Source of the DNA: Octopus vulgaris
Lineage: Eukaryota
DNA length: 64,000 bases
NCBI GenBank assembly: GCA_951406725.2
Contig: OX597820.1
Coordinates: forward strand, 80,414,001-80,478,000
Direction of reading: 5' to 3'
Shown: in pieces, positions 1 to 56,842 of the stretch
Layout: every line of letters begins with the position of its first letter
How positions within the stretch are numbered: position 1 is the stretch's first letter
Made by a program: the position numbers and the translations under genes
The notes under the pieces: model-generated
What the model was told of the DNA's origin: nothing
What the model saw: the letters and a program-made list of their open reading frames with translations, nothing else
Databases searched by the model: none

Positions 1-32
<32 letters not shown>

Positions 33-34
<2 letters not shown>

Positions 35-250
35 GTAATCCCTTGCCATATCGTGGTTCACCTATTGTGGTTTATTATTTAAGCTTATGTCGATTCCTCT
101 GTGGTGTTGGTTTGCATCTATAATAAAATAAATATATACAAATTATAAGAATAAAATAATATACAGTACAGTACTGTTTCTATTTTGCGAATTTTCACCT
201 ATCGCAGGGTTTTTGGGAAAGTAACACCCACAATAATCGAGGGATTACTG
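33..250. mobile_element. Tigger/pogo-like MITE
   Basis: Termini TAGTAATCCCTTG...CGAGGGATTACTG in a TA context. A related shorter copy is at 42210-42290. Confidence 0.7.
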
Positions 251-679
251 TATATATATATATATATACATACATACATACAGGGTATGAGAGGTATTTG
301 AGGACATATTTAGTAAATTAAATTTATTATTTAATTTAATAAAACAGTGCTAATCTAATAAAAATCAAATGTATTTTAATCAAGATTTGTGTAAATGTTC
401 TTGGTAAATTTTCTTATGAGATTATTCTATGAATCAGCCTTCAGCTTTGATGACTGCTTCAATGCAGGACTGGAATCATTGATATTTCTGCACTATATGG
501 TCTTTATTCATTCTGGACATCACCTGGACAGTGGCACCCTTCAGTGAAGCTATGTTAATGTGAGAATACCAGTTAATCTTTTGCACAAAGCTCCAAAAGG
601 GTCTAACAGCCATCCTTGGTTTACATGGCTCTGCTGAGAAGAGCTGAGTCTTGCTCAAATACATATATTCTATGTTATT

Positions 680-39715: not shown

Positions 39716-40074
39716 ACACACGCTACAATATTGTAATCGTAATACAGCACACGGTTCCTACATCTTCACAACCTCTTTATATTAATCTGCTACAAATAAA
39801 TTCTCTATTTCTGTATTCACCTTACTTTATTCTTTCGAATATCTTCTTACATATTTATCCCTCCGCTTGTTTTTTTCTTTTTTTTCAAGAGGATAACAAG
39901 AAGAAAACATTATTAAAATCATTTGCAAAGAAACGCATTGATATTGATTAAGGAGTATTTTGATTTACGTCAATTGGAGAATTGGATAAATATTGTAAAT
40001 AAATAAATATAGATATACCAAATATCCTTTTAATGAATACAACAACCATCATTATTGCAGTTCCTCTATCCACG

Positions 40075-40490
40075 GTGGTATCATTGATATCATAGAAATA
40101 TTATGGTGATATCGTTGGTATCATAGAAGTATAATGGGGGTATCGTTGAAATCATAGAAGTACAATGGTAATATCGTTGATATAAACGTACAGTGGTGAT
40201 ACCATTGATATCATAGAAGTGTACAGGTGATATCGTTGATACTATTGAAGTATAATAGTGATATAAATGATATCACAGAAGTATAATAGTTATATCATTG
40301 ATATCATATATGTACAATGGTGAGATCAGATATCATAGAAATGTAATGTTAATATCTTTCATATCACAGACGTATCATGGTGATATCATGTATGTAATGG
40401 TGATATCACTGATACCATAGAAGCATAATAGGAATATCATTGATGTGAGGGAAGTGTTATGGTTATATCATTGATGTAGAACTACAATGA
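40075..40490. repeat. Diverged ~31-bp minisatellite (~14 units)
   Basis: Consensus approximately GGTGATATCRTTGATATCATAGAAGTATAAT. Confidence 0.85.
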
Positions 40491-41088
40491 GCTTAATTTT
40501 TGTTGTTGTTTAACACCAATCATGACTCGGTATGGCTGTGTTTTTGAGAAGCTTCTCCCTTTCGTCACCGCTTGAAACCGGTATTGATGTATTTACGTCG
40601 CCATAACTTAGCAGTTCGGCAAAAGAAACCGTATACTAAGTACCAGACTTTAAAAAAAAAGTAAGTATTAGGATCGATTTGTTCGACTAAAACCTTCTAA
40701 GGTGGTGCCCTAGCATGGCCGCAGTTCACTGACTGACACAAGTGAAAAAAATCTGCAACGAAAGCAAAGTTTTTTCTATATCAGTGGAGCCGCTGATATA
40801 GAAAAATAGTGATTGGCTTTCCTTGATCTAACTGTTTAAGTATGATACACAGATTGCTATTTGAAACTAATACAACTTTTGTTGCACATAACGAATTTTT
40901 ATTCAGCCGATCGGCTTATTGCAACATCAGTAATTTTTCAAACATCCAATTGCAACACATGAATAGGAATGCTGTATCTGCAACTAAAAGCTATTTACCT
41001 CCCATAGTAATGTATGTATGTATGTATGTATGTATGTATGTATGTATGTATGTATGTATGTATGTATGTATGTATGTATGTATGTATG

Positions 41089-41445
41089 CGTCTCTTCTAT
41101 ATTTTAATCATTATAAGTCTTCCACAGAGGAGGGAGCCGGTTTCCAACAAAGATACAAGGCCCCATCTTCGGAATGTAGTTAACACAGACAAATTCACAT
41201 TTGGAATTCGAGAAAAGTCTTGCATATTTTTATTGTTCCACTCACAGATTGCACTTGTAATGTACGAATTAGCCACTTATTTTCTCTTTCTGAAAATCCC
41301 AGTTTATCCAGATTCTCCTCTAAGCATTTACTAAGAAAACTTAGTGCTCCAAATATTATTGGTATGAATATAAATTCATAGTCTGGATATAGAAGCTGGG
41401 AGTTTCGAAGCAGTTGTCAATAGATATCCTCTTTTTGTTTGATAG

Positions 41446-41446
<1 letters not shown>
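41089..41446 (-). mobile_element. RLE-type non-LTR 3' fragment between (TATG)n tracts
   Basis: KQKEDIY*QLLRN...YPDYEFIFIPIIFGAL...TLQVQSVSGTIKICKTFLEFQM*. Confidence 0.75.
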
Positions 41447-41476
<30 letters not shown>

Positions 41477-41510
41477 TGTATGTATGTATGTATGTATGTA
41501 TGTATGTATG

Positions 41511-42392
41511 TTAGTTCACTTCTAATTTAAAATTATTTGAATTCTTCCTGTAAGGAAGGAGTTGGTTTCTAACAATAATTCAATGCTTCATCGTTGAAAT
41601 GCAGATTATAAAAACAGATTCACATTTTGAACTTGAGAATGTCCTGCATACTTTTACTGTTCTGCTTACAGATTGTATTTGTAATGTGCATCTTAGCTGA
41701 TTGATTTCTTTTTTTGAAACCCCTAACTTTTCCAGATTGTTACTTAGGCATATATCACATGCCCAACATACCCAAATGCACAACTCATTATTGGTATAAA
41801 TGTGAACTTATAATCTGGAGATAGAAACTGAAGATTTCCAAAAAGTTGTCCACAGTTGTCCTCTTTTTCCTTGATTTTCGAAGAGACACTCACATTAGCA
41901 GGGCCTCTATGACCTCTATGATGGTTCATATCTTTTAATGCCTGTGCCAAACAACAATATCCAGCCTGTTATGCATCCACTTAACAGATGTTTTGCTGGG
42001 AATGTTCCACTATTACCCCTTGTGTTGATGTTTATGCTGATATTCTACAGAAGTGGGAGTCTCTATATTTATCCCAGGACAGTATGCTTTTCAGATGGCA
42101 TAGTATAATGCTTTAGCGCCGTCATTTCGCATAGGGTAGTAGTACCGTGATGGCATTTTTGGGCAGCTACTGATCACACGTGTGAGGTCTTCCACAGGAT
42201 TGTGCCATACACTAATCCCTCGACTATCACGGGTGCTACGTTCCAAAACAACCCGCAATAGGTGAACCGCGATATGGCGAGGGATTACTGTAATCAACAT
42301 TTTTGGTTATATTGCGGGGGCCGAGGGCTTCATTTTTTTGTTTATTAGGTATTCTGTAGTAATCTCCCGCTCCTGGATTGCAAACATATAGC
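41511..42392 (-). mobile_element. RLE-type non-LTR 3' fragment, diverged relative of 41089-41446
   Basis: GYMFAIQEREITTEYL, zinc-knuckle remnant VEDLTRVISSCPKM, PANVSVSSKIKEKED, LQIQSVSRTVKVCRTF. Confidence 0.78.
42210..42290. mobile_element. 81-bp Tigger-like MITE with TA TSD
   Basis: TA|CACTAATCCCTCG...CGAGGGATTACTG|TA; interrupts the zinc knuckle of the RLE element. Confidence 0.8.
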
Positions 42393-43244
42393 CTATGTAT
42401 GTATGTATGTATGTATGTATGTATGTATGTATGTATGTATGTATGTATGTATGTATGCATGCATGTATGCATGCATGTATGTATGCATATATGAGTATGT
42501 ATGTATATATAAACGAATGAGTGAACGAATGAACTAAATTCTTGATTGTTCTGTTACTACTACTACAATCACAAAAGGTCAGTAGATTAGCAGAATAATT
42601 AGGGCACCTGACGAAAAGATCTGTAATATATAGTTACGTCCCTTAATGCAGTTAGTTCAAATTTAATAAAGGCTGACTTTTCCCTTCACCTATAAAATGC
42701 CAGACAAGCACCGGCTCAGACTTAATCTGCTCTCCCCTTCCCCACTAAATATGCCGAAAGTAAAATAACTGTTTAAGTCACAAAATAAAAAAAAAAAAAA
42801 GGAAAGGAAGGCATCGATGGAAATACTTTTGTGCGCAACATGAAGTATTTCAATTTATACAGAAATAGATTTTTATCTCTGAAACCTGTATCGATTCATT
42901 TTAATCGAATTTCAACAAATTCTATATGTATGTATATGTGACTGTATTTGGGTGTATATATGTATTAGGAAGACGTCTATTATAGACTGCGACTTTGATT
43001 CTGTAACGGTAAGAAAAAAGAGAAAGAAAAAAGGAAAAACAACAAAGACAACAATGATATTCATATGTAACCTTGGCACAGATTTTGAGGGGCGGAACGA
43101 AATCGATTGATTTGGCCCTACTTGAGGCCAGGGAAAATGAAAGCAAAGTCGACACCAGTGGTGTTTGAACTCACGTATAGTGAGAACAACTGCAGAACGT
43201 TTAATACGGTACTTTATCATTTCCGTCACAGAACAGCTATAATA

Positions 43245-43343: not shown

Positions 43344-43690
43344 ACACGTTGTCATCTGCTGGTATTGATACATCAATTAGAAAGCATATTTTTTTCTTCA
43401 TGATCTCTGACAACTATATCTGGCCTATTGGCCTTAATTTCTCTATCGGTGTGTACAGAGAAATTAAGGCCAATAGGCCAGATATAGTTGTCAGAGATCA
43501 TGAAGAAAAAGAAATGTTTTCTAATTGATGTATCAATACCAGCAGATGACAACGTGTCTCTAAAAGAAATGGAGAAACTTTCAAAATACAAAGACCTGGA
43601 AATAGAGGTAACTAGAATGTGGAATCTAAAAACAGAAACAATTCCCATCATAGTAGGTGCATTAGGCATAACAAAAACACCAGGACTTAC
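43344..43690 (+). mobile_element. R4/Dong-like RLE fragment with an inverted duplication of its 5' part
   Basis: ANRPDIVVRD...CFLIDVSIPADDNVSLKEMEKLSKYKDL; arms 43344-43444 and 43457-43557. Confidence 0.85.
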
Positions 43691-46709: not shown

Positions 46710-47405
46710 TTTTTCTTCTTTCAAATTTGCTTCCATTTCTTGCCGAGTGTCTTCCCGACTCATAGGGCAAAGAAACTCATAGTATACATTGGTAGGCCAT
46801 TAAACTAAACTCAATAGTTCGTTCATTTTTTTTTTTAAGTTAAATTAGAATACATGGGTAGTAATAGTTCTCACATCGACAATGCTCTTCTCAATACGTG
46901 TGATGTACCAGTTAAGACAATCTTTTGCACTTCTTGCAGGGATGGTAAGCCAGGGATCATTCTCATATAATTTTCGGTTCCCTTCTTGATCATTCCTAGT
47001 GCTCCTACGATCACTGGTATTGTAACCGCCTTCAGATGCCACATTTTCTCAATTTCAATGAGTAGGTCTTTATATTTTCTGAGCTTGTCAAACTCTTTCG
47101 CCGAGATATTATGATCACAGGGGATGCTCATGTCGATCAATAAGCAAACTTTATTGTTTTGGTCTTTCACAACAATATCCGGTTTATTGGCTTTGATGGT
47201 TCGGTCTGTATGTACTGGAAAGTCCCACAGAATCGTTACATTTTCTCCTTCAGTTACAGCTTCAGGGTGGTGATTATACCACTTGTCGGCAGTTTTGATA
47301 TTGTAATGCCGACTTATTAGCCAGTGTAGATATTAGCCAACTCTGTCATGTCTTAATTTATACACCACTGGTGCTAAGACTTTACATCCAGAGATTAGGT
47401 GGTCC
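46710..47405 (-). mobile_element. R4/Dong-like retrotransposon, short 5'-truncated copy
   Basis: PD-(D/E)xK-type RLE (KPDIVVKD...LLIDMSIP). Nearly identical to the 3' part of 48957-51093; (TAA)n on both sides. Confidence 0.9.
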
Positions 47406-47426
47406 TATTATTATTATTATTTTTAC

Positions 47427-47528
<102 letters not shown>

Positions 47529-47600
47529 GTAATACATCGTATGGTATACACCTTGTAGCTTACCGGTAAGGTACGTTCACTTTCACAGTGTTATTTGGGT

Positions 47601-47742
47601 ATTTGATTGATGAGAGAGACGGAATATGGAAGATACAAGAATCTTTAAACCCCACGAGGAATCGATGCTAGGTTGGTGGAAACAATTGTAGTGATTAACA
47701 AATATTCTCGTATCTTCCATCTTCCGTCTCTCATTAATCAAA
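47601..47742. repeat. Fold-back with ~40-bp arms, PLE-like
   Basis: Inverted arms with GAAACAATTGTA in the loop. Confidence 0.6.
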
Positions 47743-48358
47743 AATGTGTGTGTGTGTGTGTGTGTGTACTCACATATACACACACATTCACACAGCAGGA
47801 GATGCTGTGGACGTCGAGAAGGGATAACGAGATAAAGACATTGGGTCGAACGTTGAAGCCACAAGGAGACTTTGGACTTTTAGCAGTTTCAACAGTTCTT
47901 CGAGTTTTAATACTGCTAAGTTATGGTTTAAAGAACCGATTTCCTTCGCGACATCTTAAGAAGACAAATGTTTTCAACAATCAATAACAGTTAAAAAAAC
48001 AAAAAAACAAAATAGAAAGAAACGTAAATATTTGTTCATTTAAATGGAAAATTTATTGGTTTCCAATTGCGGAATCAGGTCAGTAAGTTCAAGGGAGCAG
48101 TTAAGTCAATTCATCGCCCTCAGTGCTCAACTGGTACTTATTTCATTGACCCCAATGGATGAAAGGCAAAGTCGATTTGCAATTCAAAACATAAAGACAA
48201 ACAAAATGCGTCAAAGCATTTTTGCCGGAGGGGCTAACGTTGCTGCCATCTTCAGATCAATAATTTATGGAAACTTTCAGTGCATTCACAAGAATTCCTT
48301 TGGTGATTGCAATAGTTTAGAAGTGAGAAATGCAATAACTGAAATGAATAGGCTTTAA

Positions 48359-48542
<184 letters not shown>

Positions 48543-48554
48543 GAGTATAATAAT

Positions 48555-48827
48555 AGTATATAGAAGCAAAAAAAAAATAGGAAGAGTGCCATTGTTATCA
48601 TGTGAACTGATATTTCGGCTTCTAGCGTACTTTCTACAGGTGAAACAAATAAACTTGTCAATTTACTTCATTTTATGTAATATTTTATAGGATTGAGGTA
48701 ACTCCCCCAGAAGGTATAAAGAAGCAAAAAAAAAAAAAAAATATCGGATCACTTGATAACAATGGCACTCATCCTTTTTTTTTTGCTTCTGTATACCTCC
48801 TGGAGGAGTTACCTCAATCCTATGAAA
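48555..48827. mobile_element. PLE-like repeat with direct and inverted partial copies
   Basis: Homologous to 43785-43935; internal inversion 48685-48730 vs 48775-48823. Confidence 0.55.
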
Positions 48828-48902
<75 letters not shown>

Positions 48903-48916
48903 TATTATTATTATTA

Positions 48917-48954
<38 letters not shown>

Positions 48955-48956
48955 GT

Positions 48957-51087
48957 CTTTTTTTTTCTTCATCTTTCAAATTTGCTTCCATTTCTTCCCG
49001 AGTGTCTTCTCGACTCCTAGGGCAAAGAAACTCATAGTATACATTGGTAGGCCATTAAACTAAACTCAATAGTTCGTTCATTTTTTTTTAAAGTTAAATT
49101 AAAATACATGGGTAGTAATAGTTCTCACATCGACAATGCTCTTCTCAATACGTGTGATGTACCAGTTAAGACAATCTTTTGCACTTCTTGCAGGGATGGT
49201 AAGCCAGGGATCATTCTCATATAATTTTCGGTTCCCTTCTTGATCATTCCTAGTGCTCCTACGATCACTGGTATTGTAACCGCCTTCAGATGCCACATTT
49301 TCTCAATTTCAATGAGCAGGTCTTTATATTTTCTGAGCTTGTCAAACTCTTTCGCCGAGATATTATGATCACAGGGGATGCTCATGTCGATCAATAAGCA
49401 AACTTTATTGTTTTGGTCTTTCACAACAATATCCGGTTTATTGGCTTTGATGGTTCGGTCTGTATGTACTGGAAAGTCCCACAGAATCGTTACATTTTCT
49501 CCTTCAGTTACAGCTTCAGGGTGGTGATTATACCACTTGTCGGCAGTTTTGGTATTGTAATGCCGACTTATTAGCCAGTAGAGATATTGGCCAACTCTGT
49601 CATGTCTTAGTTTATACTCCACTGGTGCTAAGACGTTACATCCAGAGATTAGGTGGTCCACTGTTTCAATCATGTCGTTGCAGAATCGGCATTTTGGGTC
49701 TGCTCCATTTTTCATCACATTGGCCTGGTAGTTCCGGGTTAATAGGCTTTGATCTTGAGCAGCCAGGATGAAACCTTCGCTCTCTGCTTTTAGCCCTGAG
49801 CTCCGTAGCTACTGATGGGTTTGCTTCTGGTCAACATCAGCTTGTTTGCTACGGGTCACATATTTGCCGTGCAGAGGTTTCTCCTTCCACCTATCAGCCA
49901 ATTGCTCGTGCGCTTTTTTCGTTGCCATTATTTTCACCTTCTTTGCAACAATAGTTGCCGTACTTCCCTCGGGCTGTTCAGTTTGGGGATCCTGCACGAG
50001 ATCAATAGCAAATGTTTTGCTTTCCTCTATGATAGAATGAAGCTTCTTTCGTCTCTCGTGATTTTCCACGAACTTTAGCATCCAGTCATTCGTTATTTCA
50101 AGATATTTGGCCAGTCTAATTGTGGTTGTTTTGTAAGCTAGTTCAAATTGGATCAGGCCTCGACCTCCTTGGGCTCTGGGGAGGTAAAGGCGATCTACGT
50201 CTGCCTTTGGGTGGTGCATCCTATTACAACTCAGCAGCTTGCGTATTTTCCTGTCTATATTCTTTACTTCACTCATATTCCAGTTCAACACATTGTAGCT
50301 ATAAGTAACAACTGGAACTGCTAAGGAATTTATAGCTAACACCTTGTTACGTGCATTTAGTTCAGATTTCAGGACTGCACGCACTCTCCTATAACATTCC
50401 TTCCTGATCTTCTCTTTCATGCTTGCATGCTGAATACCAGAGCCTTCATTTATCCCTAAATATTTGTATGTTTGTTCTTGTTCAAGCTCTCTTATGACTG
50501 TGTCAACATCTAACACGACTGAATTTGTGGTCTTCACTTTCCCTTTCTGGAAAGTGGCCTTGGCACACTTCCCAAGCCCAAACTCTATCCCGATGTCATC
50601 GCTAAATGCTTTCACAGTGCGCAATAGGCCTTCAAGTTCATTATCGTCTTTACCATAGAGTTTTAAGTCATCCATATAAAATAGATGGCTTATTTTTTCA
50701 TTGGCAATTTTATACCCATACCCTGTTCTGTTTAATTCACTTGTAAGGGGTATTAGGGCTATGCAGAATATTAAAGGTGAAAGTGAGCACCTTGAAAAAT
50801 TCCACAGTTGATGTTTATATTCTCTGAGGCAAGTACTCCATTAGAGTGGTATAATTGGAGATTCGTATTCCACAACGACATGTGCTTCAGGAAGCTTGAA
50901 ATCACAGGGGAAATTTTAAAGATGTCCTGCGATCTCAAGATCCATGGATGCGGTATACTGTCGAAGGCCTTTTTATAGTCAATCCATGCGGAGCTGAGAT
51001 TTCTGCGCTTGTCGTGACAGTTCTCAAGGATCATACAATTAATTAGCAGTTGATCTTTGCATCCGTATGAGCCTCGGCGGCACCCTT

Positions 51088-51093
<6 letters not shown>
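48957..51093 (-). mobile_element. R4/Dong-like non-LTR retrotransposon, 5'-truncated (RT, CCHC, RLE)
   Basis: AWIDYKKAFDS, GIFQG, YMDDLKLY, CRFCNDMIETVDHLISGC, RHD, KPDIVV. A few stops and frameshifts. Confidence 0.93.
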
Positions 51094-51126
<33 letters not shown>

Positions 51127-51150
51127 GTTGTTGTTGTTGTTGTTGTTATT

Positions 51151-51470
51151 ACTTATTGCCTTTGCACAGCTTCTTACGCTGGAGATGTACTACAGTGTCA
51201 GCTGTTCACTACCTGTGAACTAAGGTAACACCCCTTATTTTTCGAGCACCTTCCGGAGTATTCGAGTGTTTCCAAGCAGTGCTGTTTTCTGCAAATGATC
51301 CACCCCTATTGCAGCCCCTATTTGATCCAAGTACTTCTCGAGATTTTTGCTCACTGTTCCCAGGTTTCCGACAATTATTGGTACTACTGCTACCTTTTTC
51401 ATCGACCACAACTGCTTAACTTCCGAAGCTAACCTGTCATATCCCTTGACTTTTCTTTGTTTCTTATTGC
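51151..51470 (-). mobile_element. Short 3' fragment of another Dong-like family
   Basis: YDRLASEVKQLWSMKKVAVVPIIVGNLGTV...LQKTALLGNTRILRKVLEK*. Confidence 0.8.
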
Positions 51471-51509
<39 letters not shown>

Positions 51510-51511
51510 CA

Positions 51512-54058
<2,547 letters not shown>

Positions 54059-56024: not shown

Positions 56025-56842
56025 TCAGTCCAAATGTATGGCACCTTGGGCAAGTGAAATGAAAATTGATGCAGATCTCTCCCTAAGGAGCAAAGGTAAA
56101 ATATATTTATCAAAAGAACAAAATATTAAAAAATGGACCAGTTCACTGAGAAGATAGTATAAAGGTACTTGGCATGAAAAACACAAACCATAAAAGGAAC
56201 TGATCATGTCAAAAGCTTGGCATGGAATACCGATGCTTCAAAGACTACTTCCATGCAATTCAAGAACTGGAGATCCTCACCAAGTACCTACATCACAAAA
56301 GACAGAAAACAATCATTTCTACTCTAGGTACAAGACCTGAATTTTGGGGGAAGGGATTAAGTCGATTACATCAACACCAGGTACTAATTTTATCGACCCC
56401 GAATGGATGAAAGGCAAAGTCAACCTCGGTGGAATTTGAACTCAGAACGTAGTGGCAGACGAAATACTTATTTCTTTACTACCCACAAGAGGAGACGAAC
56501 AAGGACAGACAAACGGAGTAAGTCGATTATATCGACCCCAGTGCGTAACTTGCACTTATTTTAATCGACCCCGAAAGAATGAAAGGCAAAGTCGACCTCA
56601 GCGGAATTTGAACTCAGAACGTAGCGGCAGACGAAATACCTTTAAGCATTTTGCTCGGCGTGCTAATCGTTCTGCTAGCTCACTGCCTTTTAAAAAAAAG
56701 GCCGAAAACAATGGCAGATAACAAATGTAGGCTGTGCAAGACCAAGAGTGAAGACATCAACCACATTATTGCCAACTGTGAGAGGATATCTTCCAAGTAT
56801 TATCTTCCCATGAGGCACGATGTGATGGTCAGTACATTGTGA
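56025..56842 (+). mobile_element. Old RLE-type fragment of the 41-42 kb family, interrupted by a SINE dimer
   Basis: FKDYFHAIQELEILTKYL, then after the SINE DNKCRLCKTKSEDINHIIANC...YYLPMRHD. Confidence 0.72.
56310..56690 (-). mobile_element. Nested or tandem family-A SINE dimer
   Basis: Two copies of the GAGTTCAAATTCC...GGGGTCGAT body; the upstream monomer ends in the Tx1-like tail. Confidence 0.75.

Follow-up and report, generated by a model that had tools for sequence, protein, structure and literature searches.

The window analysed here, a 64,000-nucleotide stretch of Octopus vulgaris DNA, holds two related retrotransposon fragments, elements A and B, between positions 41010 and 42510, and a more decayed relative further along. 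The features are as follows, in window coordinates, with the arrays delimited by TRF (RLE, restriction-like endonuclease).

41010-41088, minus strand: (CATA)n array of about 20 units, the 3′ flank of A
41089-41446, minus strand: element A, 358 nt, a 5′-truncated 3′ end from the younger subfamily of family 1
41447-41511, minus strand: (CATA)n array of 16 units, the 5′ flank of A and the 3′ flank of B
41512-42393, minus strand: element B, 882 nt, older subfamily, comprising a zinc-knuckle remnant, RLE domain and 3′ UTR
about 42198-42337, strand not given: foreign insert within B, limits approximate, kin of the repeat at window 31-253
42394-42510, minus strand: (CATA)n array of about 30 units, degenerate on its outer side, the 5′ flank of B
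56025-56842, plus strand: decayed, interrupted remnant of the A/B lineage, weakly nearer to family 2, ends lost

Since both elements lie on the minus strand and the arrays read as TATG on the forward strand, the sense-strand repeat is (CATA)n, or (ACAT)n, and the order along the element strand is (CATA)n, B, (CATA)16, A, (CATA)20. Element A carries the last 80 or so codons of the RLE domain, with one stop, and then a 3′ UTR of about 105 nt. The reading frame of B is broken by stops and frameshifts as well as by the foreign insert, which is about 130-140 nt long and in part resembles window positions 31-76 and 194-253. Against the C-terminus of P0145, one of the intact reverse transcriptase (RT)-RLE proteins, A corresponds to residues 1128-1208 and B to residues 1016-1203. 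The original prediction had described this alternation of (TATG)n arrays with two co-oriented but diverged relatives sharing related 3′ UTRs, and had quoted peptides for each. All three arrays are confirmed by TRF, the two elements align at 69% identity over 361 nt with the 3′ UTR included, and the peptides are present in the sequence. We thus confirm that A and B are 5′-truncated ends of an RLE-bearing LINE, belonging to two subfamilies and each lying between (CATA)n runs. They are dead copies of a single-ORF non-LTR retrotransposon whose protein comprises a reverse transcriptase, a zinc knuckle and a restriction-like endonuclease.

The best genome copies of A are about 90% identical to it, marking a younger subfamily, while those of B reach 72-77%, marking an older one, and the split between the two has an SH-aLRT support of 100. 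Given these relative ages, A most likely inserted into the downstream array of B, at 41447-41511. A single template-jump dimer was also considered for the pair and was rejected, as A and B come from different subfamilies.

The remnant at 56025-56842 had been proposed as an old relative with lost ends, and that description holds: it belongs to the same lineage, is split by another repeat at about 56352-56688 and gives weak matches to family 2 (79% over 48 nt, 72% over 75 nt). Elsewhere in the window, at least four minus-strand fragments of TAA-type Dong-like elements lie in train at 46880-53951 with (TTA)n arrays between them. A further Dong-like RLE fragment forms a fold-back inverted duplication at 43345-43690, flanked by (ATG)n/(ATA)n and (AGA)n arrays, and a minisatellite with a 31-bp unit in about 10 copies occupies 40074-40389.

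DNA searches of the same genome returned 6250 candidates with B as the query and 3662 with A, first-look figures that are not copy numbers. Stepwise upstream extension of the family to which they belong, family 1, led to a fixed 5′ end and a full length of about 3.6-3.7 kb; two copies that retain both ends are 3591 and 3664 nt long. Full-length copies carry a colinear but broken ORF and are old, with pairwise identities of about 80-90%. No intact or young copy was found in this genome: every copy examined was broken, and the longest open frame reached 505 aa in a set of 150 scored RT matches and 216 aa in 20 full-length candidates. Copies with common flanks reflect local segmental duplications (C2 152.1-152.4 Mb, C14 73.5-74.5 Mb, C19 50.88-50.89 Mb and C20 44.98-45.11 Mb), and each of these was counted once.

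RT matches at about 50% amino-acid identity define a second family, about 68% identical in DNA. Its 5′ flanks hold sense (ACAT)n in 17 of 28 cases and the antisense repeat in none (from 29 loci, less one that ran off; a probable pair of duplicates was retained). The 3′ end could be located in 14 copies, and in 12 of these at least 7 nt of repeat follow it. Family 2 (L231-L250, L305-L334) has a long 3′ UTR with an apparent internal (CATA)n tract and then a terminal piece of about 115 nt. This piece also occurs alone behind some family 1 copies (L053, L113, L188), and these isolated pieces may represent very short copies or else a non-autonomous derivative.

The central question is whether the repeat is only a tail, in which case the 5′ flanks should be random. 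We mapped 5′ junctions at 118 loci against four real copies and dropped 18 that were repeat matches, segmental duplicates or loci that the 5′ end ran off, and we scored a flank as positive when 10 nt or more of perfect repeat lay in the 30 nt upstream of the junction. For family 1, sense (ACAT)n was present at 17/21 full-length copies and 38/79 truncated or broken ones, against 0/21 and 2/79 for the antisense repeat (2/100 overall), and TAA was found at 0/100. Background tiles passed the same threshold in 2.5% of cases at the same loci (2712 tiles), 1.1% in the window and 0.5% at loci of the TAA family; these tiles are non-independent, so that p-values are approximate. The ACAT signal falls with distance, from 55/100 at the junction to 44/100 at 60 nt, 24/100 at 100 nt and 3/92 at 500 nt. 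A replicate set of 40 copies, 99-2434 nt long, gave 23/40 sense, 1/40 antisense and 0/40 TAA, this set having been drawn from listed matches of the 3′-junction pattern and so preselected for a CATA-bearing 3′ junction. As a control we used the TAA-type Dong-like family represented at window 51160-51470. Of its 30 loci 28 were scored, the copy in the window and the longest reference copy being set aside; ACAT was found at 0/28 5′ and 0/28 3′ flanks, and TAA at 10/28 and 22/28, respectively.

The 5′ flanks are therefore not random: they show (ACAT)n in one orientation from truncations of 99 nt up to full length, where the TAA family shows it at 0/28. This confirms that the repeat association of the A/B family is far above chance and that the repeat is more than a tail. 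An account without targeting, in which elements integrate randomly and persist or build up where microsatellites are plentiful, CATA being no more than a 3′ tail, could appeal to the microsatellite richness of this genome (121 TRF rows in the window alone) and to the half or so of truncated copies that lack a scored 5′ array. It is at odds with the strand asymmetry of 55 against 2, with the decay of the signal over distance, with the clean result for the TAA family and with the intact relatives described below, which bear one repeat unit at both ends, and we regard it as scarcely credible. Below threshold are 41/79 truncated copies and 17/40 of the replicate set, where some repeats are short or decayed and some absent; for the truncated copies, later breaks and decay are the likely cause. 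Some 5′ flanks consist of (CA)n, which suggests that the target sequence may be looser than ACAT.

A more serious challenge is that the element creates CATA microsatellites rather than finding them. It would cut at a short ACAT-like site, duplicate a few bases and bring a CATA tail, and slippage would then grow both arrays. The age of all the octopus copies would have allowed time for such expansion, several 5′ flanks hold just two or three ACAT units, and two within-locus searches (54 and 40 copies) found no clean empty site, the other matches being unrelated neighbouring repeats. On the other hand, many 5′ arrays exceed 60 nt, as reflected in the 44/100 still positive 60 nt out, and the array downstream of an older copy can hold a later one, A after B being one case and L009, L244 and L325 others. 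The single suggestive empty-site case (L365), in which other copies of the interrupted repeat hold a CA/TA-rich tract, points to a site that was already repeat-rich. Sequence-specific cutting would be needed all the same. We consider growth of the arrays from a short seed to be unlikely as the main source of the flanks, and favour recognition of existing arrays.

Intact relatives came from a metagenome scan that yielded 54 loci, the 12 closest being L251-L262; a scan of viral contigs confirmed 0 of 139 pattern matches. Two of them, L251 and L256, which are 37% identical to each other, combine an intact ORF with (CATA)n on either side, and L255 is likewise intact with (CTTA)n at both ends. (CTTA)n is present at one end in a further five, at the 5′ end in L252 and L253 and at the 3′ end in L254 and in the near-identical L259 and L260; the 5′ contig end of L254 is (ATA)n, not CTTA. 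No array was seen at the ends of the remaining 4/12. Short-read metagenome contigs tend to break at microsatellites, but such breakage does not explain one repeat unit, in one orientation, at both ends of an element. A GGAYGT motif, often on a small hairpin, starts about 18-22 nt (counted by eye) inside the 5′ repeat junction in family 1, L251, L253, L255 and L256; L252 and family 2 did not show it. The motif is reminiscent of a downstream promoter element, and if it is one, transcription would start inside the upstream repeat. Among other sequences recovered, the intact TAA-group element L263 opens with a tRNA-like sequence (positions 84-167; Rfam tRNA, 30.3 bits) directly after an (AAAT)n run, and its relative L264 terminates in (AATA)n, another tetranucleotide flank inside the TAA group. 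Two partial proteins labelled Pseudomonas aeruginosa (P0147, P0148) cluster with a Bombyx retrotransposon protein and are probably host contamination.

The intact relatives have single ORFs of 1134-1174 aa, and their proteins are 36-51% identical. A Pfam scan placed RVT_1 in L251, L255 and L256 and found no APE endonuclease family in the intact relatives. At the C-terminus, a CCHC knuckle and PD..E..K motifs align with those of the TAA-type proteins and are degenerate in single octopus copies. The N-terminus aligns with the N-terminus of the TAA-type proteins, with no C2H2 finger seen. It is predicted to form three helices (pLDDT 75.8), and its structural neighbours include many Myb/SANT entries at Z 5-7, below the clear-match Z of the tool, the best being 1ofc (Z 6.9, rmsd 2.3, 71 aligned residues); Foldseek returned no match to the model at E≤0.001. 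This putative Myb-like domain contains a conserved basic motif that is specific to the lineage.

Phylogenetic analysis of the RT (a 27-row subset of a 63-row alignment, LG+G4, midpoint root) included TAA-flanked Dong-like elements and the Bombyx-cluster protein, the latter of unverified identity, but no authenticated Dong, R4 or Rex6, and a quick tree of all 63 rows agrees with it. Elements flanked by CATA and CTTA form one clade that also takes in an Argonauta protein and unnamed proteins; its support is 95/93, or 99/96 if P0023 is included, and within it families 1 and 2 are sisters (100/98). The TAA copies of the window group with TAA-flanked metagenome elements, apart from this clade, and monophyly of all elements from the same genome, CATA families and TAA copies together, is rejected (p-AU 3.7e-46). 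The claim that the protein lineage differs from the Dong-like TAA copies nearby is thus borne out. The original prediction also spoke of a sister lineage with tetranucleotide specificity. Two-sided, strand-specific flanks and a separate clade uphold the core of that proposal, but the lineage ranges more widely than was envisaged, extending beyond O. vulgaris and including members flanked by (CTTA)n. CATA is found on the two earliest branches and in both octopus families, with CTTA in between at a fork that the tree leaves open, so at least one switch between CATA and CTTA is needed, in one direction or the other.

At the 3′ end the junction has a constant position and keeps phase with the repeat: a 22-nt junction pattern gave 211 exact matches against 0 for the control, and family 1 3′ flanks hold at least 10 nt of repeat in 15/27 copies and at least 7 nt in 22/27. 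This phasing could be taken to mean that the RNA leads: a relaxed endonuclease would nick TA-rich DNA, and the repeat with which the RNA ends would have to pair with the nicked strand, so that the tail, not the protein, chooses between CATA and CTTA. TA is common to TAA, CATA and CTTA, and the interleaving of CATA and CTTA members in the tree suggests that switching is easy, as RNA-led targeting would have it. Conservation of the putative Myb-like N-terminal domain, with its lineage-specific basic motif, weighs against it, and we think RNA-led targeting unlikely as the primary determinant; pairing of this kind is compatible with protein-led targeting as a contributing step.

We consider it quite probable that the CATA flanks result from an element protein that recognises and nicks existing (CATA)n arrays, into which the RNA is copied by target-primed reverse transcription. 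In R2 and Dong, the protein binds its target, nicks a single strand and primes reverse transcription there. By analogy, the protein of this lineage would engage the array, cut one of its strands in a set phase and start reverse transcription from the 3′ end of its RNA. The putative N-terminal Myb-like domain and the endonuclease may set the target jointly, and the nick would fall on the TATG strand just before ACATAC. Early stops of reverse transcription would give rise to truncated copies, and the downstream array of each copy would offer a target for later ones, producing stacks such as B followed by A. The best reading is that the lineage is an old branch of the R4/Dong group which targets tetranucleotide repeats, with at least one switch of target between CATA and CTTA.

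This lineage bears on what determines the target of RLE retrotransposons other than R2. Intact proteins 36-51% identical to one another have CATA or CTTA flanks, with their TAA cousins as a third state, which makes swaps of domains and RNA tails feasible. The lineage also widens the known target range of a class of element now used in gene insertion. In addition, it links one microsatellite of this genome to a LINE class that is abundant there. Dong-R4 LINEs account for 51 consensus families and 92.7 Mb in the octopus by RepeatMasker class (supplement of PMC13282606), and the available text of PMC8967140 and PMC9115989 also reports their abundance in octopus genomes; families 1 and 2 may well be among them. 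The portions of these three papers at hand give no target sequence for octopus Dong-R4 elements, the word ‘target’ being absent from that of PMC13282606, and those of PMC3124438, PMC13586686 and PMC5753468 add nothing further on such a target. No CATA, ACAT or CTTA target for an R4/Dong element was found in the literature searched, a body that did not extend to Repbase, Dfam and some key papers, and the odds that this target is already listed in a database are about even.

Microsatellite targeting as a behaviour is already known. Waldo elements of the R1 clade (WaldoAg1/2, WaldoFs1) target ACAY microsatellites, (ACAT)n among them, according to the sections of PMC3812793 available. The Waldo endonuclease is of the APE type, unlike the RLE found here, and the overlap in target is thus likely convergent. 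Togen, which targets (TG)n, and microsatellite-specific HERO families are RLE elements with comparable habits (PMC4640811, in part), but they belong to other clades, the target of Togen is a dinucleotide, and neither was placed in the present tree. The closest parallel is with Dong-type elements, whose target is (TAA)n in the accessible parts of PMC3812793 and PMC7998251. Dong of Bombyx mori, DongAg, DongBg and Darwinula Dong1/2 share with the present lineage a single ORF, an RT, a CCHC knuckle and an RLE, as well as microsatellite on both flanks and 5′ truncation, and perhaps also a Myb-like N-terminus without zinc fingers (a modest match here, with Z no higher than 6.9). The present lineage differs from the Dong group in its (CATA)n or (CTTA)n target, in an RT clade apart from the TAA-flanked elements and in its distinct C-terminal motifs. 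Dong has an HDV-like 5′ ribozyme (PMC3774820, in part), whereas here no ribozyme family appeared among Rfam matches on 13 loci and our own descriptor, a weak test used without a positive control, gave 0 matches in 26 5′ ends. Taken together, the data could describe an unnamed, old and widespread R4/Dong sub-clade on tetranucleotide microsatellites, whose intact members stand one target base apart (CATA versus CTTA), which converges on the target of the APE element Waldo, lacks the 5′ ribozyme of Dong and feeds a share of the CATA arrays of its genome; as a whole we hold this composite picture halfway between doubt and acceptance. The lineage probably works like Dong and is a member of the R4/Dong clade, but is not Dong in the strict sense.
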